Shown in pieces: positions 1-23,056 of a stretch of 35,924 nucleotides of DNA. The notes beneath the pieces are model-generated. The model did not search any database, was not told the origin of the DNA, and was given only the letters and a program-made list of their open reading frames with translations. The stretch is from Chloroflexota bacterium (GTDB lineage Bacteria; Chloroflexota; Dehalococcoidia; SM23-28-2; RBG-16-64-32). Where the stretch lies: assembly GCA_022561095.1 (NCBI GenBank), contig JADFRV010000003.1:1-35924 (forward strand), in the 5' to 3' direction. Each line of letters begins with the position of its first letter. Positions within the stretch are counted from its first letter, which is position 1. A program made the position numbers and the translations under genes.

Positions 1-93
1 GAGGTTCGTGACGCGGTCGCGAAACGTGTCAGGCAGATCTTCGACCGCGGAGGTTACCAGCCCTTCAAACGTTTCCCGATCGACCTCATACAT
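1..93 (-). CDS. Zincin-like minimal metallopeptidase family protein, N-terminus only (runs off the window's left edge)
   Basis: Not in the ORF track. Manual translation from ATG at 93: MYEVDRETFEGLVTSAVEDLPDTFRDRVTNL..., matching the typical FExLVxxAxxxLPxxF start of Zincin_1/DUF1025 proteins. Confidence 0.65.
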   Translation of the reverse strand, partial: MYEVDRETFEGLVTSAVEDLPDTFRDRVTNL

Positions 94-132
94 GTCCCCC
101 TGGATTATAGGGGAATAAGCGACGGCGCAGGG

Positions 133-170
133 CCCCGCCGCCGTGATTGCGCCCGGCGGGTGGCTGTCAA
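133..170 (-). repeat. Degenerate copy of the ~40-bp promoter-like module repeat
   Basis: Minus strand TTGACA-GCCACCCGCCGGGCG-CAAT-CACGGCGGCGGGG, 4 nt shorter than the consensus. Confidence 0.55.
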
Positions 171-332
171 CGGGGCCAAGGGCGGACGGGCAGGACCTCG
201 CGGGACCAGGTGCGGTCTCGCCCCGCTGGGCGTTGAGGACCGCGAGCGCGAAACCAATCGGAGGTCTGACGCAACGATGCTCAATTTTGGTGCATCTAAT
301 ATTGGTGAAGTCCGTGGGCGGACTCTAGCATC

Positions 333-2396
333 ATGCCTGACACTAATGTTCACGACGTTACTGGAGAAGGCCCCGTGGCCGAAACGCCCGCCCCCGCGCC
401 TGCAGAGGCGAGGCACCACCTCAAGGAAATTCGGTCGCTCAGGTTCCGGGTCCGGATAGCGGTCTACCCGGCTATCCTCATACTACTGGCCATCGACTAC
501 TTCGTCCTCGGCTTTACCCCACTCCAAACGTTTGTTACCGCCATCGCTGGCTTGTCTATCGCTATCCTATCTACGGAGACGGCTTTCGCCCGTGGATTCC
601 AGCTTCACAAGCGAACCCGCTATCCACGCGCTGTTATGGAGGAGCTGGGCACCATTAACGGGGTCTCTGAAGCTGGCGACCGCACCCTGGAGGTCGTCCG
701 TCAACTTCTCGATGTCCAAGCCTCCTTTATCATCATCCCTGGCGGCGACGACTGGATACTATCGATATCCGGAATGAGCCGGGACTCCGCAGGCCAACTC
801 ATCGAGGCGGGGATGCAGGCGATCGGAGAGGCGACTCGAACGCGGATGCCCGTGCAATTCAACCCGGCCAGCGGTAGGCGGTCGGAGACCGAGATCAGCC
901 GTCAGACACGCTTGGTGTTTATCCCCATGGTAGCCCTTCAGGAGCCGATTGGAGTTCTTGCCGTGGCGGGCGACAAGGGGAACAGAGACCTCAATGACAA
1001 CCAGCTCTTGAGCAGTATAGGCGTCGCCGTCGGCTTTTCCTTAGAGAACCTTCGCCAGAAGGAACTTATCCGGCATCTGGCCTATCACGATGGCCTGACC
1101 AACCTGCCAAATCGGATGTTGTTTGAAGACCGTCTCAGCGTAGCTCTGGCCCAAGCACGCCGCAGGAAGCAGATGGTTGCGGTGATGTTCGTGGATATGG
1201 ACCGGTTCAAGGTCGTCAACGATACAGTCGGCCACGCCCTGGGAGATCGGCTGCTGAAGGACATTGCCGAGCGGCTGAGTGGCCTCGTGCGCGATGGAGA
1301 CACCGTCGCCCGCATGGGGGGTGACGAATTCACTATCCTGCTCGCAGATGGCTCCGGGCTGGTAGAGGCGGCGGAGGTCGCCGAAAGAATCCTCGATGCC
1401 TGTCGGCGACCATGGCCTCTAGATGCCCGTGAGTTCCGCGTCACCGCCAGCATCGGGATCGCCATGTACCCCAACGATGCGGAAGACGTGGAAAGCCTGA
1501 TCCGGAACGCCGACGCCGCTATGTACCGTGCCAAGAACCAGGGTGGGGACGCATACCATTTCTACACGCCGGCCATGAATGCCACCATTGGGCGGCGGGT
1601 GGTCCTGGAGAGCGATCTGCGTCGAGCGCTGGATCGGAGAGAATTCGTGGTCCACTACCAGCCTCAGGTGAACATAGACACCGGGCAGGTCGTGGGCATG
1701 GAAGCTCTCGTGCGCTGGCAACACCCCGAACGAGGGGTGGTCCTTCCAGCAGACTTTATCGGCGTGGCCGAAGAGACCGGATTGATCGTGCAGCTTGGCG
1801 AGTGGGTGCTACGGTCCGCCTGCTCGCAGCTCAAGGCATGGCAGCAGTTAGGCCTTCCCCCAGTACGGGTGGCGGTGAACCTTTCTGCGCGACAGTTCCA
1901 ACTTCGGGATCTGAAGAACATCGTGGCTCTGGCTCTGGAAGAGACGGGCCTTGACCCTCACTGCCTTCATCTGGAGATCACCGAAAGCGTGGCGATGCAG
2001 GACGCTGAGTATACGATCTCGTTGCTGCGTGAGCTGAGGGAGATGGGGGTTCAGATAGCAATCGACGATTTCGGCACCGGTCATTCTTCTCTCAGCTACC
2101 TCACACGATTCCCTATCGATGTGTTGAAGATCGACCGGTCCTTTGTGACTGATCTCACCACTGACCCGAACGACGCCGCGATCGCCTCCACCATTATCGC
2201 CATGGCGCACAACCTCAAACTGAAGGTGATCGCGGAAGGTGTGGAGACCAAAGAACAGCTCGCTATCCTCTGGCAGCACCAGTGTGACGAGATGCAGGGG
2301 TACCTGTTCAGCAAGCCGGTACCCGCAGAGGAGGCCGAGACGATATTGAGGCGCCACCAGCGTCGGCCACTTCCCCGAGTTCGAGCAGGGCAATAG
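333..2396 (+). CDS. Membrane-anchored GAF-GGDEF-EAL diguanylate cyclase/phosphodiesterase
   Basis: Two N-terminal hydrophobic helices and a GAF-like segment. Motifs: HDGLTNLPNR, RxxD I-site (RDGD), RMGGDEF, EALVRWQHP, DDFGTG, KIDRSF, AEGVE. Confidence 0.95.
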   Translation: MPDTNVHDVTGEGPVAETPAPAPAEARHHLKEIRSLRFRVRIAVYPAILILLAIDYFVLGFTPLQTFVTAIAGLSIAILSTETAFARGFQLHKRTRYPRAVMEELGTINGVSEAGDRTLEVVRQLLDVQASFIIIPGGDDWILSISGMSRDSAGQLIEAGMQAIGEATRTRMPVQFNPASGRRSETEISRQTRLVFIPMVALQEPIGVLAVAGDKGNRDLNDNQLLSSIGVAVGFSLENLRQKELIRHLAYHDGLTNLPNRMLFEDRLSVALAQARRRKQMVAVMFVDMDRFKVVNDTVGHALGDRLLKDIAERLSGLVRDGDTVARMGGDEFTILLADGSGLVEAAEVAERILDACRRPWPLDAREFRVTASIGIAMYPNDAEDVESLIRNADAAMYRAKNQGGDAYHFYTPAMNATIGRRVVLESDLRRALDRREFVVHYQPQVNIDTGQVVGMEALVRWQHPERGVVLPADFIGVAEETGLIVQLGEWVLRSACSQLKAWQQLGLPPVRVAVNLSARQFQLRDLKNIVALALEETGLDPHCLHLEITESVAMQDAEYTISLLRELREMGVQIAIDDFGTGHSSLSYLTRFPIDVLKIDRSFVTDLTTDPNDAAIASTIIAMAHNLKLKVIAEGVETKEQLAILWQHQCDEMQGYLFSKPVPAEEAETILRRHQRRPLPRVRAGQ

Positions 2397-2518
2397 CCCG
2401 GGCCGACTGTACGCCGACGCAACGCCTAAGGTTCGGCCTCAGCCGCTTGGCGACGAGGTACTGAACCTGTTCTATAGCCCGCTCTCTGTCTGTCATCACC
2501 CTCGCTGATTCGCCCCGC

Positions 2519-2541
2519 TCGCCGCCGCGATTGTGCGCCCC
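2519..2541 (-). repeat. Partial copy of the module repeat
   Basis: Minus strand GGGGCG-CACAAT-CGCGGCGGCGA; the TTGACA end is missing. Confidence 0.55.
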
Positions 2542-2672
2542 AGCCTGGACCGCTGGGTGGGTGGTGTCGGACACCGTCCCTCCGGCAGGGCCCTTGACGT
2601 CGTCCTGCTGAGGTCTCAGGATTGTCCGCAGAAAGATCGGTAGGGGTCAAGGAAAGGAAGAAGGTAAGAAAC

Positions 2673-2744
2673 ATGGAAGAGAAGAAGGAAGGTAAGAAGA
2701 AGGGTAAGAAGACAAGCAGGAAAGGTGGAAAGAAAGACCGTTAG
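2673..2744 (+). CDS. Putative 23-aa lysine-rich basic peptide
   Basis: MEEKKEGKKKGKKTSRKGGKKDR*. Purine-rich SD-like leader; possible promoter TTGACG-N17-CAGGAT at 2594-2622. Confidence 0.4.
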   Translation: MEEKKEGKKKGKKTSRKGGKKDR

Positions 2745-2800
2745 TGTCTACGTTCGCTTGGGCCCGTCTGCCTAGAGCCAAAGGGACGAGGACGATCGTC

Positions 2801-2840
2801 CGCCCGCCGCGAATGTGCGCCTGGGCTGGGGGGGTGTCAA
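2801..2840 (-). repeat. Module repeat copy
   Basis: Minus strand TTGACA-CCCCCCCAGCCCAGGCG-CACATT-CGCGGCGGGCG, starting a few bp after the cyclase stop codon. Confidence 0.75.
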
Positions 2841-2845
2841 CTGGC

Positions 2846-3255
2846 CTAGCCCGGTTCCCGCCACCTCAGCTCGTACAGCCGGACAGGGTCCTCGAAGCCA
2901 CGCGGCTCGGTCTCGCCCAGGTCCGCGAACATGAACTGCTTCCCTGCCGCCAGCTCCCTGACGACGATGGGGGCGAGAATCTGACCCGCCTCAGCCTGTG
3001 CGCATATCCGCGCCGCCAGGTTCACTGCCGTCCCGAACAGGTCGCTGCGCCCGTCTGGGTCCTCCTCCGCTATCGGCTCCCCAGCGTTCATCCCTACTCT
3101 GACCTTGATGGGCTCCTCAGCCGACTCGTTGTGCTCCGCGAACGCCCGCTGCATGGCGATGGCGCACTCCAGCGCCTTCGTCGCGGAGGAGAATGAGGCC
3201 ATGAACCCGTCGCCCAGCGCCTTCACCTCCGAGCCGCCATGGGCCGTCAGCGCAC
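2846..3255 (-). pseudogene. Class III adenylate/guanylate cyclase domain, C-terminal fragment
   Basis: ALTAHGGSEVKALGDGFMASF...VRVGMNAGE...DLFGTAVNLAARI. Lacks the first metal-binding (LFTD) strand and an RBS; in-frame stop just upstream. Confidence 0.85.
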
Positions 3256-3288
3256 CGTGCTACACTCCGTCCACCACAGCAGGAGGTG
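3256..3288 (+). repeat. 33-bp direct repeat, copy 1 (flanks the SRPBCC insert)
   Basis: CGTGCTACACTCCGTCCACCACAGCAGGAGGTG, 30/33 identical to 3898-3930. Confidence 0.85.
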
Positions 3289-3320
3289 AAGAGCATCAGC
3301 CAACTTGGCTGACGCACTGT

Positions 3321-3791
3321 CTAGGAGGCTTCGGGGCTAGGCATAGGCTCGCCCGTCTCGACATAGTGCTTCAAGCCAGCCAATACCAGGGGTAACAAGT
3401 CTTCACGGTTCTGGCGCTCCACCTCTTGCGGGTCCACGGGGGTATCCGACTTAAGCTCGTACTCGAGCGCCAAAGTGACGATAGTTCCATCCCCGTCCTC
3501 TGAGACTGATATTGACCCCGTAGCAGACGCAAACGGCAACGTGCCTTCGTAAAGCTCGAGTGTGATGGCCTCACCAGGTCTCCACTCTACGACATTCTCT
3601 TTCACGTAACCGCCGTCAGGGAAATCGCAATGCCGAGAGGCTTCCAGCCCGCCCTTTGCCGCTGACGTGTAGTGCGAATCGGCAAGTGCGGGATTCCAAA
3701 CACTTACCGCTCCCAAGTCGGCAATAACGTCCCACACCCTGTCTTTGGACGCGCCGATTCGAGCTTCAACTGCAACTCTTGTCATGTTCAT
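3321..3791 (-). CDS. SRPBCC (polyketide cyclase/START-like) family protein
   Basis: IGASKDRVWDVIADLGAVSVWNP...LAGLKHYVETG signature; GAAGGGA RBS. Confidence 0.85.
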   Translation of the reverse strand: MNMTRVAVEARIGASKDRVWDVIADLGAVSVWNPALADSHYTSAAKGGLEASRHCDFPDGGYVKENVVEWRPGEAITLELYEGTLPFASATGSISVSEDGDGTIVTLALEYELKSDTPVDPQEVERQNREDLLPLVLAGLKHYVETGEPMPSPEAS

Positions 3792-3897
3792 CGTCCCTTC
3801 GTTTGAATAGTCTTGTTTTATTCTACGGACTACTGGTTACTGGATACAACAACCATTCGGATGTACGCTGGTTTCTCCGCTGGCCACTCCGCTGGAA

Positions 3898-3930
3898 CGT
3901 GATACGCTCCGTCCACCACAGCAGGAAGTG
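3898..3930 (+). repeat. 33-bp direct repeat, copy 2
   Basis: CGTGATACGCTCCGTCCACCACAGCAGGAAGTG; a partial third copy CGTGCTACACTCC lies at 3946-3958. Confidence 0.85.
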
Positions 3931-3970
3931 GCAATGAGCTAGCCCCGTGCTACACTCCCGCCATCTCACG

Positions 3971-4075
3971 TCATGGAGGTGGCGGCATGCCGACCATGGG
4001 AATCCCCTTCCCCAGCGTGTAGTAGGCGATGCTCACCCCGTCGCTCGTCTTCGCGTACTGGATGCGCGGCTCCAT
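3971..4075 (-). pseudogene. N-terminal fragment of an alpha/beta-hydrolase-adenylate/guanylate cyclase fusion protein
   Basis: Manual translation MEPRIQYAKTSDGVSIAYYTLGKGIPMVGMPPPP*, the typical start of hydrolase-cyclase fusions. Same strand as the fragment at 2846-3255; TACAAT -10-like box 9 nt upstream of the ATG. Confidence 0.75.
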
Positions 4076-4147
4076 GGCGGGGATATTGTACGCCTCTGGA
4101 CTATCTCTGTCTCGGTGTCACTGTCGGCAGGCGGTGGCTGCGGTAGG

Positions 4148-4183
4148 CCCCGCGATTGTGCGTCTGGGCTGGGCGGGTGTCAA
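4148..4183 (-). repeat. Module repeat copy
   Basis: Minus strand TTGACA-CCCGCCCAGCCCAGACG-CACAAT-CGCGGGG. Confidence 0.8.
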
Positions 4184-4208
4184 CGTGGCGCTAGCTCGTC
4201 TCGCGCCA

Positions 4209-4234
4209 CCCAGGCGCACAATCGCGGCGGCGGG
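4209..4234 (+). repeat. Partial module repeat copy, inverted relative to 4148-4183
   Basis: CCCAGGCG-CACAAT-CGCGGCGGCGGG, identical to part of the 5446 copy. Confidence 0.75.
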
Positions 4235-4383
4235 CCTACGCGACGAACTCGCCGCGATCGGAGAATAGGAAGCCTTTCCGGAGCAGAGGCCACGAACGGT
4301 GCAGCCTAGGTCTTTCAGCCTGAGCCGTCGGGAAGGGGCTGGCGATGTTAGATCGGCGACGACCTTCCAATCGGCAGCTGGTC

Positions 4384-5136
4384 TTACCGTCCGTAGACCA
4401 CCACAAGGTACTTGCTTTCGCTGGTGAACGGCTCGCGGTTCCAGCCGCCCCAACGCTCCTTCAGCCGTAGTCCGGCGATCCGTGCCATGAGATCGAGCTC
4501 GCTAGGCCATGCATAGCGGGTGACCACTGGGTTCACGCGCACGCGATCGCTCGATAGCAACACGTGGCTCTCTTCGAGTAATTGTGTGACCGGGTCGTGA
4601 CGAGCGACATCGAGCCGCACTAGGTCGACTTCGATACGTTCCGCGTCAACGTACTGGTTATCACGCAATCGGTAGAGGAAGTCAGGTCGGAATACTTCGA
4701 TGAGGAACACGCCGTCATCTTCCAAATGAGCCGCGACGTTCTCGAAGCAGCGCACTTGGTCGTCTTGAGTCAGAAGATTAAACAACGAGTTCGCCACAAC
4801 AAAGATCAACCGATAGGTGCCGGAAACGGTAACGTCGGCCATGTCGCCGATCGTAACCGCGATCTGTTCCCCTCCGGGCTTGGCGCGGAGCTGGTCGACC
4901 ATGGCGACCGACAAGTCGATCCCATCGACACGAATACCGCGAGCGGCAAGCGGGACCGCGATCCACCCGGTGCCGATGGCAAGCTCCAACGCAGGACCGC
5001 CACCTGCCAAGTTCTCCAAAAGTGCGACGGCCGCGTCACGGTGGCTACTGCTCGGGGTCTTCGAGAAACCTCGTAAGTCATCGTACACCTCGGCAACCTT
5101 CGGGCCAAAGCTCATGACTGGCTCGTAGTCCTTCAC
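4384..5136 (-). CDS. Class I SAM-dependent methyltransferase
   Basis: ALELAIGTG motif I, GIDLS, GDM; GTG start with AGGAGG RBS. Confidence 0.9.
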   Translation of the reverse strand: MKDYEPVMSFGPKVAEVYDDLRGFSKTPSSSHRDAAVALLENLAGGGPALELAIGTGWIAVPLAARGIRVDGIDLSVAMVDQLRAKPGGEQIAVTIGDMADVTVSGTYRLIFVVANSLFNLLTQDDQVRCFENVAAHLEDDGVFLIEVFRPDFLYRLRDNQYVDAERIEVDLVRLDVARHDPVTQLLEESHVLLSSDRVRVNPVVTRYAWPSELDLMARIAGLRLKERWGGWNREPFTSESKYLVVVYGR

Positions 5137-5151
5137 ACAAGCCTCCTATTG

Positions 5152-5241
5152 CTAGTGATGTAAGAAACTAAGTCGTTCTCCTGCTCGCCGGTTCGGCAGC
5201 AGGCGATCGTGGAGTTCGTGATTCGCGTGTCGAGCCTTCAT
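5152..5241 (-). CDS. Small ORF (29 aa) or gene remnant upstream of the methyltransferase
   Basis: AAAGGAGG-caaca-ATG; MKARHANHELHDRLLPNRRAGERLSFLHH*; no recognisable family. Confidence 0.3.
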   Translation of the reverse strand: MKARHANHELHDRLLPNRRAGERLSFLHH

Positions 5242-5445
5242 TGTTGCCTCCTTTGTTCTGCACCGAGCAGCTAAAAGCGCCGGTAGCCACCACTGAGACC
5301 CGACTCGCGCCGCCCGAGCGGCTCGGCAGCGGTGGGGATCACGTAGGGGGGGGCGCTCGCCTGTTAGGGCAGAGCCATTATAGCCCTTCGGCGATATGGT
5401 GGGCGCACTTCGACTAGGAGTACGGGTCTGCCAGGGACACACCCG

Positions 5446-5487
5446 TTGACACCGGCCCCGCCCAGGCGCACAATCGCGGCGGCGGGG
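5446..5487 (+). repeat. Module repeat copy (best match to the consensus)
   Basis: TTGACA-CCGGCCCCGCCCAGGCG-CACAAT-CGCGGCGGCGGGG, with 17-bp spacing. Confidence 0.8.
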
Positions 5488-5633
5488 GCGTGTCGAGCGG
5501 AGCGGGTTGCCGATGCTGCTCAACCGACTCTTAACTGATCCTTAACCTTTCGCCGTCCGAAGTTCACCCTGGTATATACCCTACGTTGATAAATTGAAGC
5601 TATCGGACGAGACCAAAAGGGGAGGGGTTAATC

Positions 5634-5882
5634 ATGGCAGGGTTTCGCGAGAGTAAGCCTGCCGATGAGGCAGTGCCAGAGCACGCTGAGGAGCCGCGCC
5701 GTCGGGGTCTTGACGAGCTCAGCGGCAAGGGCGGTTCAGAGGAGGAATTCCCGGAGCTGGCGGACGAGCTCAAGGGGATCGGCGATATCGCTGACCTGCT
5801 TCGGGAGGTCGGACGCGAGCGGCGTCGCTTCGGCGAGGACCTGATGCGGCTGTTCGAAGTGAGGTGGCAGAAGGAGGGCTAG
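5634..5882 (+). CDS. Hypothetical acidic protein, 82 aa
   Basis: GGGGAGGGG RBS before ATG; codon style matches the host. Confidence 0.6.
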   Translation: MAGFRESKPADEAVPEHAEEPRRRGLDELSGKGGSEEEFPELADELKGIGDIADLLREVGRERRRFGEDLMRLFEVRWQKEG

Positions 5883-5888
5883 GCTCTG

Positions 5889-5917
5889 TTGACACCCGCC
5901 CCACCCAAACGCACAAA
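5889..5917 (+). repeat. Module repeat copy
   Basis: TTGACA-CCCGCCCCACCCAAACG-CACAAA, 6 bp after the stop of the 82-aa ORF. Confidence 0.7.
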
Positions 5918-6017
5918 AGGAAGAGGCGCTCCCAAGTCCGCGTTGTCGCAAGGGGTGTGGCGATGAGACCCGGTTAGCGCCATTTAGGCGCGGTTTGGCG
6001 CAATCACGGGCCCTTTA

Positions 6018-6188
6018 TTACTTGTTCTTGATGATGATGGGCGGCTCCTGCCGCCACGTGTAACTCGCCCTGTAGTTAGGCGCGCTGGCTGCCTTTCTCG
6101 GCGAGGCAAAATGATAGATGGAGAGCGCCGACTTGGCGCAGTAGACACACAGCCGCTGCACGCCCCGCTTGTATTTGTGGTAGCTCAC
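6018..6188 (-). CDS. Small basic protein with CxxC, 56 aa (possible zinc-binding)
   Basis: Below the ORF-track cutoff. AGGAG RBS, GTG start; MSYHKYKRGVQRLCVYCAKSALSIYHFASPRKAASAPNYRASYTWRQEPPIIIKNK, followed by TAA TAA. Confidence 0.55.
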   Translation of the reverse strand: MSYHKYKRGVQRLCVYCAKSALSIYHFASPRKAASAPNYRASYTWRQEPPIIIKNK

Positions 6189-6348
6189 TTCAGCCTACTC
6201 CTAACCGCCAGTAGCACGTCCAGGTAGATTACTTGCCGCCTCGTGTGTCGGCTCGTCTCGCCTGCCCATATCGCACTTCCTGCTCACCCTGTAAACAACA
6301 GAGAGCCCCGTCTGTTACCGTTCCCTGTGCAGTATTGCTGCGCCGCCA

Positions 6349-6389
6349 TTGACAGTCGCCCGGCCCAGGGGCACTGTCGCGCCGGCGCG
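6349..6389 (+). repeat. Diverged module repeat copy
   Basis: TTGACA-GTCGCCCGGCCCAGGGG-CACTGT-CGCGCCGGCGCG. Confidence 0.55.
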
Positions 6390-6391
6390 AC

Positions 6392-6425
6392 TGACAGCCC
6401 GTTTGACAGCCACGTTGACAGCCAC
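6392..6425 (+). repeat. Triple TGACAGCC(AC) repeat with 12-bp period; putative tyrosine-integrase arm-binding sites
   Basis: Copies at 6392, 6404 and 6416, about 70 bp from the tRNA-Phe fragment; the same motif recurs after tRNA-Leu. Confidence 0.65.
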
Positions 6426-6492
6426 AGGCCGACGTTGGCGGACGCCTACAGACGACAAACAGATAGGGGATGGGGTATCCTCTACCTACGGA

Positions 6493-6543
6493 ACGCGACT
6501 GAAAATCGCGGTGTCGGCAGTTCAAATCTGCCCCCCGGCACCA
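6493..6543 (+). mobile_element. attR-like site: 3' part of tRNA-Phe(GAA)
   Basis: Anticodon arm CGCGA-CTGAAAA-TCGCG, T arm GGCAG-TTCAAAT-CTGCC, acceptor 3' strand CCCCGGC-ACCA. No 5' acceptor strand or D arm upstream. Confidence 0.8.
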
Positions 6544-6576
6544 GTTTGCATCTCCGTTCCGGAAGCGAGGTTGGAT

Positions 6577-7779
6577 GTGGCTGGTGCACTTGAGGGAGTG
6601 AAGGTTGTCGAGCTGGGGCTGTGGGTGGCCGCACCATCGGCGGCGGCGATGCTGTCCGATTGGGGCGCCCAGGTGATCAAGATCGAGCCACCGCAGGGCG
6701 ACCCGTTCCGGGGCCTGTTCGCGTCCTTAATGGGCTCGCCGGTGACCGTGAACCCTCCTTTCGAAACCGACAACCGGGGCAAGCGCAGCGTGGCGTTGAA
6801 CCTGGAGAGAGAGGAGGCGCGCGAGATCGCCTTCCGCCTCATCGAGGGGGCGGACGTGTTCGTGACCAACATGCGGCCGCGCGCCCTGGACCAGTTCGGG
6901 CTGAGCTACGAGGAGCTAAGCCGCCGCTACCCGCGGCTGGTCTACTGCCAGGTGACGGGCTACGGGCCGGACGGGCCGGACCGGAACCGGGCGGCGTACG
7001 ACATAGGGGCGTTCTGGTCGCGGGCCGGTGTCGCGGCCGCCCTCACGCCGGCGGGGGCTGAGATACCGCAGCAGCGAGGCGGCATGGGCGACCATATGGC
7101 CGGCACCGCCGCGGCGGGCGCGGTATGCGCCGCTCTGCTGGCCCGGGAGAAGACCGGCAAGGGGCAAAGAGTGGACGTGTCTCTCCTTCGCATGGGGGTG
7201 TACATGATGGGCTGGGATGTCAGCCTGGCCCTCAGGCTCAAGGTCCCTATCGTGCCGTACGACCGCCAGCACGCCATCAACCCCATCATCACGTGCTACA
7301 AGTCAGGCGACGAGCGTTGGTTCTGGCTTCTCCTTCTCCAGGCGGACCGGCACTGGGGCGACCTGTGCCGGGCGATCGGGCGGGAGGAGCTGATGACGGA
7401 CAGCCGGTTCGAGAACATCGAGCAGCGGCGGGCTAACGGCCCGGCGCTTGTGGCGGAGCTGGACGCGGTGTTCGCTACGAAGAGCATGGCCCAGTGGGGG
7501 GAGATATTCGACCGGCACGACGTGTGGTGGGCGCCGGTCAACTCCATCAACGAGGTGGTGGAGGACCCGATGGCCCAGGCCGCAGGCGCCTTCGCCGAGA
7601 TCCCTGGGCCGGACGGCCCCATCCCGGTGGTGGCCACACCAGCCGATTTCACCGACACGCCCCAGGCGCCGCGAGGCGCCGTGCCGGAGCTGGGGCAGCA
7701 CACGGAGGAGGTGCTGCTGGAGCTGGGTTACAACTGGGATCAGATCGTGGCTCTGAAAGAGCGGGGGGCGATTCCCTGA
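6577..7779 (+). CDS. CaiB/BaiF family (class III) CoA-transferase
   Basis: LEGVKVVELG, GAQVIKIEPP.GDP, NRGKRSV, ADVFVTNMRP, GMGD (catalytic Asp), PELGQHTEEVL. GTG start at 6577 chosen from the family N-terminus. Confidence 0.93.
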   Translation: MAGALEGVKVVELGLWVAAPSAAAMLSDWGAQVIKIEPPQGDPFRGLFASLMGSPVTVNPPFETDNRGKRSVALNLEREEAREIAFRLIEGADVFVTNMRPRALDQFGLSYEELSRRYPRLVYCQVTGYGPDGPDRNRAAYDIGAFWSRAGVAAALTPAGAEIPQQRGGMGDHMAGTAAAGAVCAALLAREKTGKGQRVDVSLLRMGVYMMGWDVSLALRLKVPIVPYDRQHAINPIITCYKSGDERWFWLLLLQADRHWGDLCRAIGREELMTDSRFENIEQRRANGPALVAELDAVFATKSMAQWGEIFDRHDVWWAPVNSINEVVEDPMAQAAGAFAEIPGPDGPIPVVATPADFTDTPQAPRGAVPELGQHTEEVLLELGYNWDQIVALKERGAIP

Positions 7780-7792
7780 GGCGGGAAAAGCA

Positions 7793-7820
7793 AGAAGCGG
7801 GCCGGCACCGGCCCGCTTCT
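7793..7820. terminator. Perfect GC-rich hairpin after the CoA-transferase
   Basis: AGAAGCGGGCCGG-CA-CCGGCCCGCTTCT; the T-run is on the minus-strand side. Confidence 0.65.
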
Positions 7821-7835
7821 CAGCGGAGCTAACGC

Positions 7836-7882
7836 GGCGTCAAAATTGCCTTCTTGACGCCAACGCCCAAAGGAGATACGGT
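7836..7882 (+). promoter_or_regulatory. sigma70-like promoter with an overlapping palindrome
   Basis: TTGACG(7854)-N17-TACGGT(7877). The palindrome GGCGTCAA-N10-TTGACGCC overlaps the -35. Predicted +1 coincides with the 5' end of the hairpin RNA. Confidence 0.55.
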
Positions 7883-7886
7883 GAGC

Positions 7887-8016
7887 GAGGTTGCCCACCA
7901 TCTAGGGCTGTCGGTAGGAGGACCCCTGGCCCCCTGAGGGACGGCAGATACCTCAGGTCGCGGCCGGCCCCCCTTGCGGCGATCTTGCCGGCGGTCCTAG
8001 ACGGTGGGTAACTTTT
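7887..8016 (+). ncRNA. Putative structured ncRNA of ~130 nt, family unknown
   Basis: 7887-7919 pairs with 7983-8015 over 33 bp: 24 Watson-Crick, 8 G-U, 1 mismatch. Internal bubble, then CTGGCC/GGCCGG and CCTGAGG/CCTCAGG stems; ends in TTTT. Confidence 0.7.
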
Positions 8017-8059
8017 ATCGCCGCCGTCCCTCCTCGGCTGATTCGTCCCTTACCTTGAC

Positions 8060-8191
8060 TTGAGCAGTCGCCACCCGTCTATGCGGGTTCAGGCCGGCAG
8101 AGCGAGAACTCGCGCGCTAATCAGGGGTCTTCCTCCTCCTGATTACGACGTCACGATGTTATGAAAAGCTCTGCGGCCTGGCAAGGTTCAA
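8060..8191. ncRNA. Second putative structured RNA, strand uncertain
   Basis: CAGGCCGGCAGAGC (8090-8103)/GCTCTGCGGCCTG (8168-8180); TAATCAGG/CCTGATTA closing the loop GGTCTTCCTCCT; small hairpin ACCCG/CGGGT; outer pair TTGAGC/GTTCAA. Confidence 0.45.
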
Positions 8192-8197
8192 CGGCTG

Positions 8198-8241
8198 ATT
8201 CTTGACTGGTTTTTGTGAAAAGACTGTGAGAATCGCGTGAA
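8198..8241 (-). promoter_or_regulatory. Three direct repeats with 11-bp period (OmpR/PhoB-type box-like) plus a -10-like element
   Basis: Minus strand TTCACG-N5-CTCACA-N5-TTCACA-N10-AAGAAT. Confidence 0.4.
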
Positions 8242-8254
8242 GAACACGCCCGCC

Positions 8255-11200
8255 CTACTCGTAACGCAAAGCTTCGGCGATAGGGACGCTAGCGGCCTGG
8301 CGCGAAGGAACGATCGTCATCAGAAGCGAGGCGAAGAAGGCGAAGGCGGAGATGAGCGCTATCTGGAACCAGGGTATGGCGTACCCTGAGTCCGAGGTGG
8401 GGAACTCGTCTGAGGTTATGAGGAAGTAGGAAAGCCAGATAGCCAGCCCAACCCCGGAGAGGACGCCCAGCGCCGCTACGAACGTGGATTCCAAGATGAA
8501 GCTCAAGGCCACCGTGCCGCGGGTGTAGCCTATAGCCCGGAGCATGCCGATCTGCTGCCTGCGCTCCACCACCGAGCGGAAGGCGATGACGCCCACGGCG
8601 GCGATACCCACGAACAGGCCCAGGCCCATGAACGCCTGCATCAGCCGGAAGAAGTTGCGGAACAGCGCCTGATCATCGTCGATGTCATTCTTGATGGACG
8701 ATGCCTGAGCGCCGCTTGTTGTGAGGGCGGACTCGACCTCCTTAGCCACGCCCACCGCGTCGCCAGGGCTCTCCAGCCCGACGTAATACTGGGAAGATCC
8801 CGCCTCGCCGAACACGTCCGCGAAGGTACGCTCCGGGATGAAGACCCCGAAGAAGGCCGAGCTTGAGGCGAAGCTGATGACGCCGATGATGCTCACCTGC
8901 CTGGTGTTTCCGGACACAGGGTCACGCACCTCGATGGTGACAGGGTCGAAGACGTCGGCGCCCTCGGGGATGCCGTCCAGATTGAAGGTGGGACCGAAGT
9001 TGAAACCACCCTCGATAGCGAAGGCGTCGATGAGGGCGACGTCCTCGCCGTCCCGTATCTGCTGCCACACCGCCTGATCGCTATCGAAGCCCGTGGCGCG
9101 GGCCTCGAGCGCGATGTCGGCGCCGTCCACGAAGCCAGGGCTGACGCCGCTGACGAAGTAGTCGTCGAAGTCGTCGCCCGGCAGCTCGCGCACCTCGGGG
9201 AAGGTGAAGCGGCCGGGCAGGCTGAGACGGCCCACGGAGCGGAACTGGGATGTGTCGACGGAGCCCTCAGCCTCCAGCGCCGCCACCAGGTCGCCGCCCA
9301 GGGGGTTGTTGGCGTTCTCCTCCACCAGCACGTCCCAGCCGCCGCGGGCCTCGTCGCCGAGGAACAGCCGGTCGAAGTTGAGGTTCATGGTGGACATCAT
9401 CACGAGGGCGAAGACGATGAGCGAGATCATGGCCATGGTCATGCCGGTGCGGAACTTGTTGGCGAGGGGATAGGCGACGGCGGTCTTCATGGCGGGCAGG
9501 ATGCGTCCGAACCGGGCCCCGAGGCGCGAGAGGAGGGCCAGGATGATGTCTGCGTTGTAGATGAGGACGAAGGTGGAGGCGGCGACCATGGAGATGCCGC
9601 TGAGGAAGAACATCTCGGGGCCGCCCTCCAGCGGCCCGAACAGGAACTCCAGGCGGCTGCCCGCGGTAAGGCCCCAGAGGAGCAGCAGGAAGATGCCCGT
9701 CGCTGTAAAAACGGGGCGCCCAGGCAGCCGGAAGAAGCGGAGGACGATAGCGGCGCCGAAGACGATCAAAGAGAAGCCGAAGGCGAAGGGGAATGTGGAA
9801 TCGGACCCGAGCCCCGACTGCATCATGAGGGCTCCGACGACCACACCTACCGTACCGAAGCCAGCGCTCCACGCGATGGGCCGATCACGGTCCTGAAGCG
9901 CCACCAGGACAAGGCCAAGAGGTGGCACCACGACTCCAAGCAGGACGAACCAATTGGGGACACTCCGAGGCCTGCGATCACGCGTGAGCCGGATTAGGAC
10001 TAGAGATGCCAAGTAGTGAAACGGAGTCAACAAGAGGGGCCAGGTCGGAATCCGCTCGCGGCGTCCCACAAAGAGGGTAACCTGATAGAGCGGAAAAGCC
10101 AGGATCGGGATGGGGAACCATAGGGGCCAAAACCAACGCATCGGACGGTCGCTGGACCTCTGACTGGCTGCCATGCTGAACCTTTCACCTCGCAGCAAGT
10201 AGAGCCATGGGCCAACTAGCCCTATGACGGCGGCAATCAGGAATAAAGGAGCGAGGTCGCCGAATTGGAGCGCTGCAATCAAAGAAAGGAGAATGGTTCC
10301 CACGGCAGCGAAGGCGTTGAGGACGCCACGGAGGTAGCCCTTCACGGTGGCTTGTTCCGGATTCGCCGCCTGGGTCTCCGGGAGGTTACGAATCGCCGCC
10401 ACGATGTTCAAGTTGGAGACGCGCCAGGAGGAGAAGGTGACGGTGATGAAGGTCAGGACCACACCGAGGCTGTAAGAGATGATGATGGTACGAAGGGTGA
10501 TATGGGGCTGAATGTTCAGGTCGAACTCAGAGAAGATGCGGGCCATTATCTGCGTCATGCCGAAGGAGATGAGGATACCGAGGGCGGCGCCGACGGCGGC
10601 TGCGACCAGGTTGTAGACCATGCCTTCCGAGAGGAATGCCTGGACGAGCTGGCCGCGCTTGGTACCGATAGCGCGGGTCATCCCCAACTCTGACTTCCGC
10701 TCGGCGGCCAGCATGACGAAGATCATCAGTATGAGAAGCATGCCGGCGGCGATGGAGAAGAGGCCGAAGATGAGGAAGAAGGTGACCATGAAGCTGCCAT
10801 CCTCCTCAGCATGATCCACGCCGTCCTGCTTGAAAGGCTCGATATCAAGGTCCAGCCCCTCGTCCGCGATCACCCTCTCGACGCTGGCCACAACCGCATC
10901 GGTCAGCTCTACGCCGTCGCGGACGCCGCCGCTGTTGGAGATGGCGATGACGTTGACCTCACCTTCGCGCCCCAGGACACGCTGCACGGTCTCCAGTCTG
11001 GTCACCAGCCCTTCAGTCTGCTCGAAATCGAAGACGCCGGTGGTGACGCGATCCTCCACGACATCCGCAACAGTGAACTCCAGCGGCTGGTTGTGGACGA
11101 ACACCTGGATCAAGTCGCCGGGCTGAATGTCCGCCTCGTCAGCCAGGGATTCGTTCACGTACACTTCGTTTACCGCCAGGTCAGCTACCTGGACGGCGTC

Positions 11201-12945: not shown

Positions 12946-13395
12946 TTAATTGACCGACAAGGCATCGGGAGCCAAGTCAGTCTGAATGATAATAAACTCA
13001 TGGGCCTTCCCACCTCTGTTACTCACGTCGAATGTGATAGAGCCTGCCGTTACGGAGGCGCTATCTGCATTGACGAACCACTCTCCCAGTTCCACATTCA
13101 CGGTCGCACCCTGGGAGTCGGCCTCGTCGATGACCTCGAAGGCTGTATACATTCCATTCTTGTAATGGCCCCTGAGGTTGCAGAAGAGTACGTACTTGCC
13201 GGGCGCGAGATCAAACATGCCGCTAGCCGACTTGCCAGGTCCCAACTTGCTCTCCCCGATGCTGCCGTTGACCATTCCAGCTTGCGACTCGTCCACCTGG
13301 CCCCACCCGCAGGCCGCTAGTACCAAAGTCAGGGCCACGACCATCCCCAACAGCATCGTGATGGTGCCAACCGCCCGTCGGTGTCCGCTCGTCAC
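12946..13395 (-). CDS. Cupredoxin (blue copper) lipoprotein, circularly permuted
   Basis: GGGAGG RBS plus GTG; signal peptide with lipobox LAAC. The FCNLRGHYKNGM (Cys/His/Met) loop precedes the NRGGKAHEF His segment. Confidence 0.75.
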   Translation of the reverse strand: MTSGHRRAVGTITMLLGMVVALTLVLAACGWGQVDESQAGMVNGSIGESKLGPGKSASGMFDLAPGKYVLFCNLRGHYKNGMYTAFEVIDEADSQGATVNVELGEWFVNADSASVTAGSITFDVSNRGGKAHEFIIIQTDLAPDALSVN

Positions 13396-21895: not shown

Positions 21896-23056
21896 ATGCC
21901 AGCGAAAGTCGCCATCATCGGTGTAGGCCACACAGCGTTCCGGGCCACCAGCCCGGGGCTCTCCTACAAGGAGCTCATGTTCGAGGCGGCCACCCGCGCC
22001 TACGAGGACGCCGGCCTGGACGCCCGCAGCGAGATCGACTCCTTCCTGACCTGCTCCGAGGACCTGGCCGAGGGCACCAGCATCTTCGACGAGTACGTGC
22101 CGGACCAGATCGGCGGCGCCGAGCGACCCGTCTACACCGTGGGTGGGGACGCCATCCAGGGGCTGGCGACGGCCTACATGCAGATCGCCAGCGGCATCGT
22201 GGACGTGGTATCGGTAGAGGCACACAGTAAGGCGTCCAACGTGGTCACGCCGGGCGAGCTGCACGCCTTCGCCCTCGACCCGATCTTCGTGCGGCCGCTG
22301 GGCTTCAGCGCCCACGCCATGGCGGGGCTGGAGGCGTCCGCATACCTGGCGGCGACCGGCACGACCCGCGAGCAGTGCGCCCACGTGGTCGCCAAGAACC
22401 GGCGCAACGCCCTGGCGAACCCCAGCGCCGCCCACGCCGCCGCGATTGACCCACAGGACGTTCTCGCCTCGCCTCCCGCCTTCGCCCCGCTCACGGAGCT
22501 GGAGGTGAGCGCCCCGGCTGACGGCGCGCTGGTGATCGTCCTGGCGTCCGAGGAGCGTGTTAAGAAGCTGAAGGGGCAACCCGTCTGGCTGCGCGGCATC
22601 GGCTGGTCTACCGGCTGCGGCATCACTGCCGGTCCGGACGGCGCATCCGCGGACTACGCCAGGAGCGCCGCCGAGTTGGCCTATCGCATGGCCGGCATCC
22701 CCGCCGAAAAGGCGGGCCGGGAGATCGACTTCGCGGAGGTAGACGACAGCTACTCGTTCAAGGAGCCGCAGCACCTGGAGGCGCTGGGGCTGTTCGGGCC
22801 GGGGCGCGCCGGCGCGGCGACGGCGGATGGCGCCACCGCCCGCGAGGGCGACCTGCCGGTGAACGTGTCCGGCGGCTCCCTGGGCGTGGGGCAGCTGTTC
22901 GAGGCGAGCGGCGGGCAGAGGGTGGCGGAGGTGGTGGCGCAGCTCCGCGGCGAGGCCGGTCCGCGTCAGATCAAGAAGGCGAAGACCGGGCTGGCCCAAT
23001 CGTGGCGGGGCGTCCCCACGGCGACGGGGGCGGTAGTGGTGCTGAGCCGTGACTAG
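21896..23056 (+). CDS. Thiolase-fold protein (SCP2/Ltp4-like), lacking catalytic Cys/His
   Basis: KVAIIGVG, KNRRNALANP, DGALVIVLASEE, VNVSGGSLGVG; no Cys at the acyl-enzyme position. Confidence 0.85.
   Translation: MPAKVAIIGVGHTAFRATSPGLSYKELMFEAATRAYEDAGLDARSEIDSFLTCSEDLAEGTSIFDEYVPDQIGGAERPVYTVGGDAIQGLATAYMQIASGIVDVVSVEAHSKASNVVTPGELHAFALDPIFVRPLGFSAHAMAGLEASAYLAATGTTREQCAHVVAKNRRNALANPSAAHAAAIDPQDVLASPPAFAPLTELEVSAPADGALVIVLASEERVKKLKGQPVWLRGIGWSTGCGITAGPDGASADYARSAAELAYRMAGIPAEKAGREIDFAEVDDSYSFKEPQHLEALGLFGPGRAGAATADGATAREGDLPVNVSGGSLGVGQLFEASGGQRVAEVVAQLRGEAGPRQIKKAKTGLAQSWRGVPTATGAVVVLSRD

Follow-up and report, generated by a model that had tools for sequence, protein, structure and literature searches.

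A 45-bp promoter-form repeat at the joints of gene cassette arrays in sediment Dehalococcoidia: a candidate site of cassette exchange

The first 6.4 kb of a 35,924-nt stretch of DNA from a Chloroflexota bacterium of the class Dehalococcoidia (GenBank assembly GCA_022561095.1, contig JADFRV010000003.1, positions 1–35,924; hereafter the window) carries a short repeat that stands between small, unrelated genes, and the same repeat bounds arrays of such genes, or cassettes, elsewhere in this genome and in its relatives. On balance, and from sequence comparison, we lean toward the reading that this repeat is a joint site of cassette arrays that also forms a sigma-70 promoter. In the proposed mechanism, the mobile unit would open with approximately ACAAT-CGCGGC... 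at its 5′ end, would usually carry one small gene in either orientation, and would close with ...CCCCG-TTGACA-CCCGCCC-N-GCCCAGGCGC at its 3′ end. The joining of two units, or the circularization of one, would rebuild the full 45-bp site, and the rebuilt site would take the form of a near-consensus sigma-70 promoter (TTGACA, 17 bp, CACAAT, and a G+C-rich discriminator) pointing into the next unit. Exchange at the site would make arrays grow and shuffle, and the arrays would ride as cargo in integrative elements, such as the window's tRNA-Phe island. The exchange would presumably be made by a sequence-specific recombinase through circular intermediates, and transcription would start from the site. 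A more far-reaching proposal is an undescribed gene-capture system of sediment Dehalococcoidia, in which circularizable cassettes undergo site-specific recombination at a fixed 45-bp non-attC site, the halves on different cassettes rebuild a promoter, and a host or unrecognized recombinase acts; we put this forward tentatively, as a real possibility that falls somewhat short of probable.

The comparison was made between the window's own genome (G000, a 2.27-Mb assembly of 267 contigs with 64% G+C) and its relatives, including G001, G002, G003, G004, and G005; contigs and loci are labeled C and L, respectively. Metagenome assemblies, probably short-read in most or all cases, are the source of all of the DNA. 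Column counts over 52 strong copies of G000 gave the consensus CCCCG-TTGACA-CCCGCCC-N-GCCCAGGCG-CACAAT-CGCGGCGGCGG, about 45 bp long, which agrees with the consensus that the original prediction had drawn from the letters of the window. An nhmmer profile was built on these 52 copies, and matches in the same genome are therefore expected by construction; the pattern searches in other genomes, run with a reversed-pattern control, are independent of the profile. In the numbering used here, the first T of TTGACA is position 0. On the left, the repeat begins sharply 5 nt ahead of TTGACA; on the right, it fades across a (GGC)n-like tail, a short run of variable length (e.g., window 5475–5487). Metagenome contigs matching the copy at 5446 turn into unlike sequence at 5442 and 5486 (in run X2 at 5480 too), and these departures delimit a 45-bp unit. 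The best conserved block is formed by spacer positions 14–25, which rank above either hexamer. Position 13 (A, C, or G; e.g., window 5459) closes the first unit of a GCCCA-GCCCA tandem. An extra conserved extension, CAGTGAGGTCGCC, is borne by 43 of 407 unique copies, which make up a sub-family of about 58 bp.

In the window, the profile recovered eight copies, all within positions 1–6396, and no copy from 6.4 to 35.9 kb. Two of the matches are weak (133–179, E 0.12; 2517–2539, E 0.13). The original prediction had placed eight copies at these sites between open reading frames (ORFs), four on the minus strand and then four on the plus strand, diverging from about 4195, with none later in the window, and all of this was confirmed; a 13-bp remnant that it had placed at 5997–6009 drew no profile match. 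Its statement that two copies begin 5–6 bp past a stop codon also held, the stop codon of the ORF at 2846–3226 (minus strand) lying 5 nt and that of an 82-aa ORF 6 nt from TTGACA. A pattern of the two hexamers with at most 2 mismatches matched seven times in the window versus 0.83 expected, an 8-fold excess, and none of 100 shuffles reached seven. The repeat accounts for five of these matches, and those at 13070 and 21315 are without the conserved spacer.

The repeat is widespread in related genomes and in sediment metagenomes. In G000, 71 profile matches lie on 30 of the 267 contigs, mostly in co-oriented arrays, with seven copies on C37, six on C234, five on C79, and four on C48; the even spread through the core genome ahead of housekeeping genes that the original prediction had named as evidence against itself was not seen. 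A 29-nt pattern (at most 3 mismatches) was found in 11 of 41 related genomes, among them all five remaining species of the genus that were searched (between 6 and 133 matches per species) and members of five further genera, and the reversed pattern gave 0 matches in every related genome. By pattern search, G000 holds 47 copies and G001 holds 20, and the largest genus genome searched (about 3.0 Mb) holds the most, 133. An exact scan of one genome per species returned 35 stretches, nearly all titled Dehalococcoidia or Chloroflexota, a scan of metagenome contigs returned at least 111 stretches with the repeat, and a viral contig collection returned 0 exact pattern matches. Most of the window was found in many public sediment metagenome runs from nine studies; no run listed for it is recorded as RNA, and two runs with a metatranscriptomic label carry it only as a guess. 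In four metagenome runs, window bins bearing the repeat had a summed depth of 930–9700, compared with about 5–60 in most single-copy island bins, and their depth was 20 to 200 times that of neighboring single-copy bins; three of the five high-depth bins also contain cyclase paralogues.

The copies form strongly oriented arrays. Among neighboring copies at most 4 kb apart, 137 were co-oriented and 5 opposed in the genome-derived set (221 copies on 69 sequences), with a spacing of 117 to 3515 bp (median, 693), and an independent metagenome set gave 123 co-oriented versus 3 opposed (238 copies at 111 loci). Some contigs of G003 carry 12–13 same-strand copies over 15 kb. Genes were called with our own codon-bias caller, and the counts that depend on it are approximate. 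By these calls, 145 of 163 strong copies are intergenic, and 134 cassettes comprise 73 with one gene, 32 with two to five genes, and 29 without a callable gene. The gene strand is the same as that of the repeat in 98 cases and opposite in 59 (69 versus 34 for strong calls, about 2:1). The 1097 ORFs near the repeat fall into 627 clusters, 384 of which are singletons, and the recurrent cassette families are accessory signaling and secreted proteins (cyclase-AAA-TPR, PD40/TSP3, subtilase, Zincin-like, zinc-finger, PEBP, and CHRD).

High copy number, intergenic position (145 of 163), and restriction to one lineage would also be expected of a selfish short element of the repetitive extragenic palindrome (REP/REPIN) or miniature inverted-repeat transposable element (MITE) type that spreads into intergenic DNA. 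We consider this very unlikely indeed, given that the copies show neither inverted pairs nor a strong or otherwise convincing palindrome, that no Y1 transposase of the REP-associated (RAYT) type (PF01797) was found in G000 or G001 with their 47 and 20 copies, and that independent insertions would not yield a linkage to the flanks that splits the element at one place, as described below. The arrays and their shuffling might instead be assembly artifacts, that is, contigs misjoined through the repeat, and it is true that contigs from public runs break at the repeat edges and that the array-bearing contigs of G000 are short. However, common assemblers work with k-mers that at their largest exceed the 45 bp of the repeat, the same architecture is present in independent assemblies from many projects, the window ties an array to core genes whose synteny extends to five species, and an orientation coherence of 96–98% would not come from random misjoins. 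An artifact is therefore extremely unlikely.

Cassettes recur in new contexts. A 514-bp cassette is 98.8–99.4% identical in G000:C35 and two G003 contigs, and its flanks are unrelated in all three; core DNA identity between G000 and G003 is 94%, against 98.8% for this cassette. Its ORF is reversed and has its own TTGACT-N17-CATAAC motif (ORF and motif both read by eye). Among 11 homologous cassette pairs, three represent assembly duplicates and three are without neighbor data, and in the other five every comparable neighbor differs. Locus L129 has the order X-site-Z and L032 the order X-site-Y-site-Z, with Y of about 520 bp; L190 and L200 have one cassette in common and both flanks different; and L073 and L081 diverge directly after CACAAT. 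At these and other loci and species, the module boundaries coincide with the repeat, as the original prediction had expected. Some joints in metagenome contigs (e.g., 140 to 4150, 5478 to 6392, and 6390 to 5445) would fit cassette loss or a circular junction, but they have a side of at most 30 letters or extra letters, are too ambiguous within the repeat to count, and were not used.

The joint between cassettes was mapped inside the repeat by using 407 unique copies, from which pairs were taken that had one flank at least 95% identical for 100 bp or more and the other flank unrelated. Seventeen informative pairs (9 clusters) had a common downstream flank, and 13 (9 clusters) had a common upstream flank. 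The results showed that positions 0–12 go with the upstream flank and positions 24–34 with the downstream flank, the mismatch being 0.00 at positions 29–32 versus a background of 0.20–0.32. Rare variants at positions 18–23 remain upstream-linked, pairs alike in their upstream flank start to differ at positions 24–31, and similarity is lost before position 27 in only 10 of the 407 unique copies. Linkage thus switches inside the repeat, indicating that the −35 and −10 elements of each site come from different cassettes. Each unit would end in ...TTGACA-spacer-GCGC and begin with approximately ACAAT-CGCGGC..., and in the window copy at 5438–5489 the joint would fall near 5469/5470.

Several observations weigh against a dedicated joint site. 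Because positions 14–23 are nearly invariant, the switch is located no more closely than between positions 13 and 24; homologous or microhomology-driven exchange, if restricted to the longest run of identity, would leave the same pattern. Position 13 tracks neither flank (mismatch 0.62–0.65, equal to background), even where the flanks are at least 95% identical, and no simple crossover model accounts for it. Chimeric joins at a 45-bp repeat may occur in assemblies that are probably short-read. The repeat has no clear dyad symmetry, its best inverted pair being 6 bp and involving the poorly conserved tail, and no enzyme was tied to the site among the recombinase and transposase families searched. 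Motifs for a gene's own promoter are also about equally common ahead of co-oriented genes (8 of 60) and reversed genes (7 of 29).

With regard to promoter character, column counts of the 52 copies gave the sigma-70 hexamers and a spacing within the expected 17 ± 1 bp (TTGACA-17-CACAAT), with A at −11 and T at −7, and the two best window copies score 10/12 in a promoter scan. Native tRNA promoter motifs of the lineage, read by eye, are TTGACG-N17-TAGAAT and TTGACG-N17-TACAAT, which follow the same consensus. Conservation stops about where transcription would begin, and about 30 of 120 co-oriented downstream ORFs start 25–46 nt past the −10 element, compared with about 9 if starts were uniform over 300 nt. 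The perfect −35 element, 17-bp spacer, usable −10 element, and fading of conservation near the expected transcription start, together with the 2:1 gene bias to the direction of the repeat and the enrichment of ORF starts 25–46 nt downstream, would also describe a merely reused strong promoter, possibly with a spacer operator for a lineage-specific regulator, whose shuffling is a by-product of homologous recombination between copies. Putative mobile promoters are a described class (PMC3575422). Identity-limited exchange, moreover, also puts the crossover inside an invariant core. However, about one-third of the cassette genes oppose the repeat, including four of the seven intact module genes of the window (GGDEF-EAL, lysine-rich mini-ORF, methyltransferase, and CxxC), and in this respect the mobile promoter that the original prediction had offered as an alternative is only half right. 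Co-orientation of 137 versus 5 whatever the gene direction is unexpected for independently placed promoters, the −35 and −10 halves are inherited from different neighbors, and degenerate copies (CCGACA as the −35 element and a longer spacer) still lie at cassette joints. The identical stretch that is present in every case spans only about 12 bp, a short length for RecA-dependent exchange. The facts on gene direction, spacer conservation, degenerate copies, and orientation would not fit a site that is only a promoter, and we judge simple promoter reuse to be unlikely.

The strongest conservation, in spacer positions 14–25, would accord with recognition by a protein other than sigma, and this counts in favor of the joint-site reading. 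In another reading, the copies would be binding sites for a repressor or silencer encoded by the mobile elements, arrayed in one direction so as to shut down or insulate cargo transcription in the manner of mycobacteriophage stoperators. The sites are indeed asymmetric and co-oriented, lie in short intergenic gaps, overlap the −35 element, are best conserved in the spacer, and form arrays in integrative, phage-like elements. This explanation leaves the break of cassette homology inside the site unexplained, however, and a candidate repressor did not emerge; a single genome may have as many as 133 copies, on many contigs, and the viral contig collection held no exact match. Repressor sites are accordingly a very unlikely explanation.

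The proposed cassette-array joint site was then compared with integrons. By definition, attC sites have complementary R″ (RYYYAAC) and R′ (GTTRRRY) boxes 40–130 bp apart and fold into a hairpin. At the place of the attC box, the repeat reads GTTGACA. The original prediction had found no attC structure, and in agreement with it, six arrays gave 0–2 attC box pairs each, equal to shuffles. Hairpin folds were unremarkable in five of six cases (z from −0.6 to +0.8), and one had z = −2.3. The integron integrase was likewise not found: the best match to TIGR02249 scored 77 bits versus a cut-off of 265, and none of five genomes (G000, G001, G003, G004, and G005) passed. The system is apparently not a classical integron, because there was no integrase above the cut-off and attC-type box pairs were at chance level, nor does it appear to be REP-like. 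Integron-like features that are present are the co-oriented sites at cassette boundaries and the cassettes exchangeable between arrays.

A recombinase or transposase co-occurring with the repeat, which the original prediction had suggested looking for, did not emerge from the families searched. A 304-aa tyrosine recombinase (P0001) beside the array of G003:C62 was not found in the repeat-bearing G001, G002, G004, and G005 in a search of 41 genomes; it also occurs in six genomes without the repeat and was rejected as a dedicated recombinase. The presence of Y1 transposase (PF01797), IS110 transposase (PF01548), or serine recombinase (PF00239) does not track the repeat. Phage_integrase (PF00589) has 14 matches in G000 and 26 in G003, none of them consistently at array ends, and two Xer-like recombinases (in G000 at C149 about 22168–22977 and C73 about 7071–7895) are conserved in all five species checked, with nothing tying either to the site. 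Tyrosine recombinases would be the only candidate class found, untied to the site. The sole match in G000 to a dif-like site had four mismatches and was not used, and a dif likeness of the repeat could not be shown.

The array and the island end occupy the following positions in the window.
133–179, minus strand: diverged repeat copy, ahead of the start of a Zincin-like ORF that is cut off at base 1 of the window (nhmmer E 0.12).
333–2396, plus strand: cassette gene for a GAF-GGDEF-EAL protein, facing against the flanking repeats (Pfam EAL 274 bits, GGDEF 178 bits).
2517–2561, minus strand: degenerate repeat copy with CCGACA for TTGACA and extra spacer bases (nhmmer E 0.13 for 2517–2539; alignment with three homologous cassettes).
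2563–2789, plus strand: lysine-rich mini-ORF cassette (ORF 2673–2744), against the repeats and also present at three other loci (86% identity to G000:C55 8365–8603; four-way alignment).
2791–2846, minus strand: repeat copy (nhmmer E 9e-11; pattern match with 1 mismatch).
2846–4146, minus strand: broken cyclase cassette, with a C-terminal piece at 2846–3250 and an N-terminal piece at 3947–4146 (Pfam Guanylate_cyc; paralogues found).
3321–3791, within the minus-strand cyclase cassette: SRPBCC gene between the cyclase pieces, flanked by 33-bp direct repeats (Pfam Polyketide_cyc2; repeat family D3).
4143–4195, minus strand: repeat copy with perfect hexamers (nhmmer E 5.5e-12; promoter scan 10/12).
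4207–4235, plus strand: partial repeat copy, right half only from about position 15, marking the point where the two arrays diverge (nhmmer profile positions 29–57, E 3.6e-4; inverted repeat I8).
4384–5136, minus strand: cassette gene for a methyltransferase, against the flanking repeats (Pfam Methyltransf_25).
5438–5489, plus strand: repeat copy with TTGACA at 5446–5451 and CACAAT at 5469–5474 (nhmmer E 4.8e-12; metagenome loose ends at 5442 and 5486).
5634–5882, plus strand: 82-aa ORF cassette, co-oriented with the repeats (0 Pfam families; 92.7% identity to G000:C37 6573–6948).
5876–5927, plus strand: repeat copy, left part only, in which similarity stops inside CACAA (nhmmer E 3.2e-6; B-type clusters C97:5888/L132 and C234:1822/L169).
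6018–6188, minus strand: 56-aa CxxC ORF cassette, against the repeats and recurring beside the 82-aa cassette on other contigs (0 Pfam, 0 PHROG; 96% identity to C37 6185–6551).
6336–6396, plus strand: last repeat copy, diverged (nhmmer E 4.6e-7).
6413–6547, plus strand: right end of the island, consisting of an arm at 6413–6492 in common with a small island of G002 and then a tRNA-Phe 3′ fragment at 6493–6547 (attR; synteny with five relatives).

These module contents, as obtained from Pfam and the ORF list, are those that the original prediction had described. The ORF running off base 1 we take to be Zincin_1-like from a comparison by eye with the cassette at L024:174–551, which has this Pfam assignment. 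The mini-ORF cassette is purine-rich, with a putative 23-aa lysine-rich ORF, and is conserved at 79–93% identity at its three further loci; it consistently faces against the repeats and bears a TTGACG-type motif of its own. The 33-bp repeats at 3256–3288, 3898–3930, and 3946–3978 bracket the SRPBCC gene, and their copies are 91% identical; only one further copy is present in G000 (C115:6680), and many contigs of one metagenome run break at their edges. In the copy at 4143–4195, contig loose ends lie at 4150 (runs X2 and X6) and 4185 (X6), that is, in two of four metagenome runs. A short palindrome, TGGCGC...GCGCCA, occupies 4184–4208, exactly where the minus and plus arrays diverge, and the plus-side copy at this divergence is missing its left half, as might result from an inversion or a truncated insertion. 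The acidic 82-aa ORF and the basic 56-aa CxxC ORF, which have no Pfam or PHROG match, travel together in the window and on C37 and in part on C234, L025, and L069. The pair is placed at the array end in both loci that show this end, the window and C37.

The array of the window lies in an island. Synteny of the core DNA with five congeneric species sets in exactly at 6493 (at 6413 for G002). In G003, G004, and G005, an intact tRNA-Phe gene with its own TTGACG-N17-TAGAAT promoter motif stands directly beside the same core genes. In G002, an intact tRNA-Phe lies 2.7 kb upstream together with a second 3′ fragment, and the 2.7-kb island shares sequence with the window from 6413 on. The intact tRNA-Phe of G000 is on contig C158, where genes for an integrase (PHROG 1, 271 bits), an excisionase-like protein, and a primase come after it. 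No whole tRNA-Phe is present in the window, where ARAGORN made no call and an Rfam match at 6469–6540 (36.3 bits) was the sole match of the scan. Only 6493–6547 matches the tRNA-Phe of relatives, indicating an attR-type 3′ fragment. Of the tRNA-Phe island in the original prediction, the island was confirmed by the relatives and by C158, and the tRNA gene was reduced to its 3′ fragment. Window positions 1–6492 appear to be the cargo end of an integrative element inserted in tRNA-Phe, because of the synteny break, the 3′ fragment, and the intact tRNA-Phe with an integrase on C158. The features of a tRNA-inserted island are all present, namely an intact tRNA with an integrase at one end, a repeat of the tRNA 3′ part at the opposite end, and relatives in which the site is empty; the two ends lie on different contigs (that of the window and C158), which would be linked.

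The array stops 17 bp short of the arm common to the window island and the G002 island. Between the last repeat and the tRNA fragment, three tandem TGACAGCC motifs at 6391–6431 resemble the left end of the repeat and may be decayed half-sites or arm-type sites. On G000:C37 (L206), a phage-like block at 777–6132 (primase/helicase, RusA-like resolvase, exonuclease, and large terminase) abuts the seven-copy array, which opens with the same CxxC and 79/82-aa cassettes that close the window array. At L190 (G001:C79, about 10000–10170), a tRNA gene with its own TTGACG-N17-TACAAT promoter motif closely follows an array copy, indicating that single repeat copies are also found beside core RNA genes. 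A family-wide search for a comparable locus adjacent to core genes failed, with only the first 320 query bases conserved.

Several known systems resemble the repeat-bounded arrays in part. Phage morons are single accessory genes with their own promoter inserted between the genes of phage elements. The cassettes would similarly be single-gene-plus-promoter units, and one array here abuts a large terminase gene; morons, however, have neither a common promoter sequence nor long oriented arrays with a common joint. The pdif/Xer modules of Acinetobacter plasmids are bounded by 28-bp dif-like sites in alternating orientation, have no recombinase of their own, and are reshuffled between replicons. 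Here too the modules would be bounded by short recombination sites, whereas the sites are 45 bp, G+C-rich, and co-oriented. In the circles of IS911, IS30, and IS492, −35 and −10 elements at opposite ends form a promoter on joining that drives the element's own transposase; the split of −35 and −10 is alike, but the units here carry unrelated cargo and no transposase. The stoperators of cluster A mycobacteriophages are 13 bp long, asymmetric, co-oriented, and intergenic, overlap the −35 element, and occur many times per element within one phage genome, but they are not joints between exchangeable units, as the repeat would be here.

Integron arrays and clusters of attC sites lacking an integrase (CALIN) share cassettes between arrays, and many arrays have no nearby integrase (Cury 2016, PMC4889954). 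The likeness lies in co-oriented short sites between mostly single, small, diverse genes and in units that carry parts of the site at both ends (PMC4889954). In contrast, no IntI and no R″/R′ attC were found here, and what is constant in the site is its sequence, not a structure; its promoter form would remove the need for a common Pc; and dozens of arrays per genome lie inside tRNA-inserted, phage-like islands, with about two-thirds of the genes following the direction of the site. In its working, the repeat system would be most like integrons and CALIN, but it lacks two of the defining features of that family. Putative mobile promoters have been defined as stretches of 50 nt or more, at least 80% identical, that precede nonhomologous genes (Matus-Garcia, Nijveen and van Passel 2012, PMC3575422). 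Set against this definition, the repeat is far above 80% in identity and precedes unrelated genes, but its conserved block extends for about 45 bp. Both cases present near-identical promoter-like DNA before unrelated genes, shared between genera; the surveyed families are mostly pairs (PMC3575422), whereas the repeat has 47–133 copies per genome in oriented arrays, with either gene direction and a split between units. The repeat may fit this loose class as an extreme, ordered case.

The repeat string was not found in the literature searched, with supplementary files outside the search, and the search found no paper combining Dehalococcoidia, integron, and gene cassettes. The papers found on Chloroflexi integrons and attC all appear to concern classical integrons. 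To our knowledge, integrons are the only well-understood builder of single-gene cassette arrays, and how cassettes are made, and how they are expressed far from the common promoter, are open integron questions. Here, a non-integron site bounds hundreds of cassettes per genome in a widespread uncultured sediment lineage, apparently with a promoter at each joint. Even if the exchange is driven by homology, few described families of reused promoters would match the repeat in size and order, and if a dedicated enzyme or circular cassettes were found, the system could be categorically new. If site-specific exchange is true, it would represent a second, independent solution to modular gene capture, based on a compact, portable recombination-plus-expression site through which each captured gene brings its own expression signal, and it would help to explain the genome plasticity of Dehalococcoidia.

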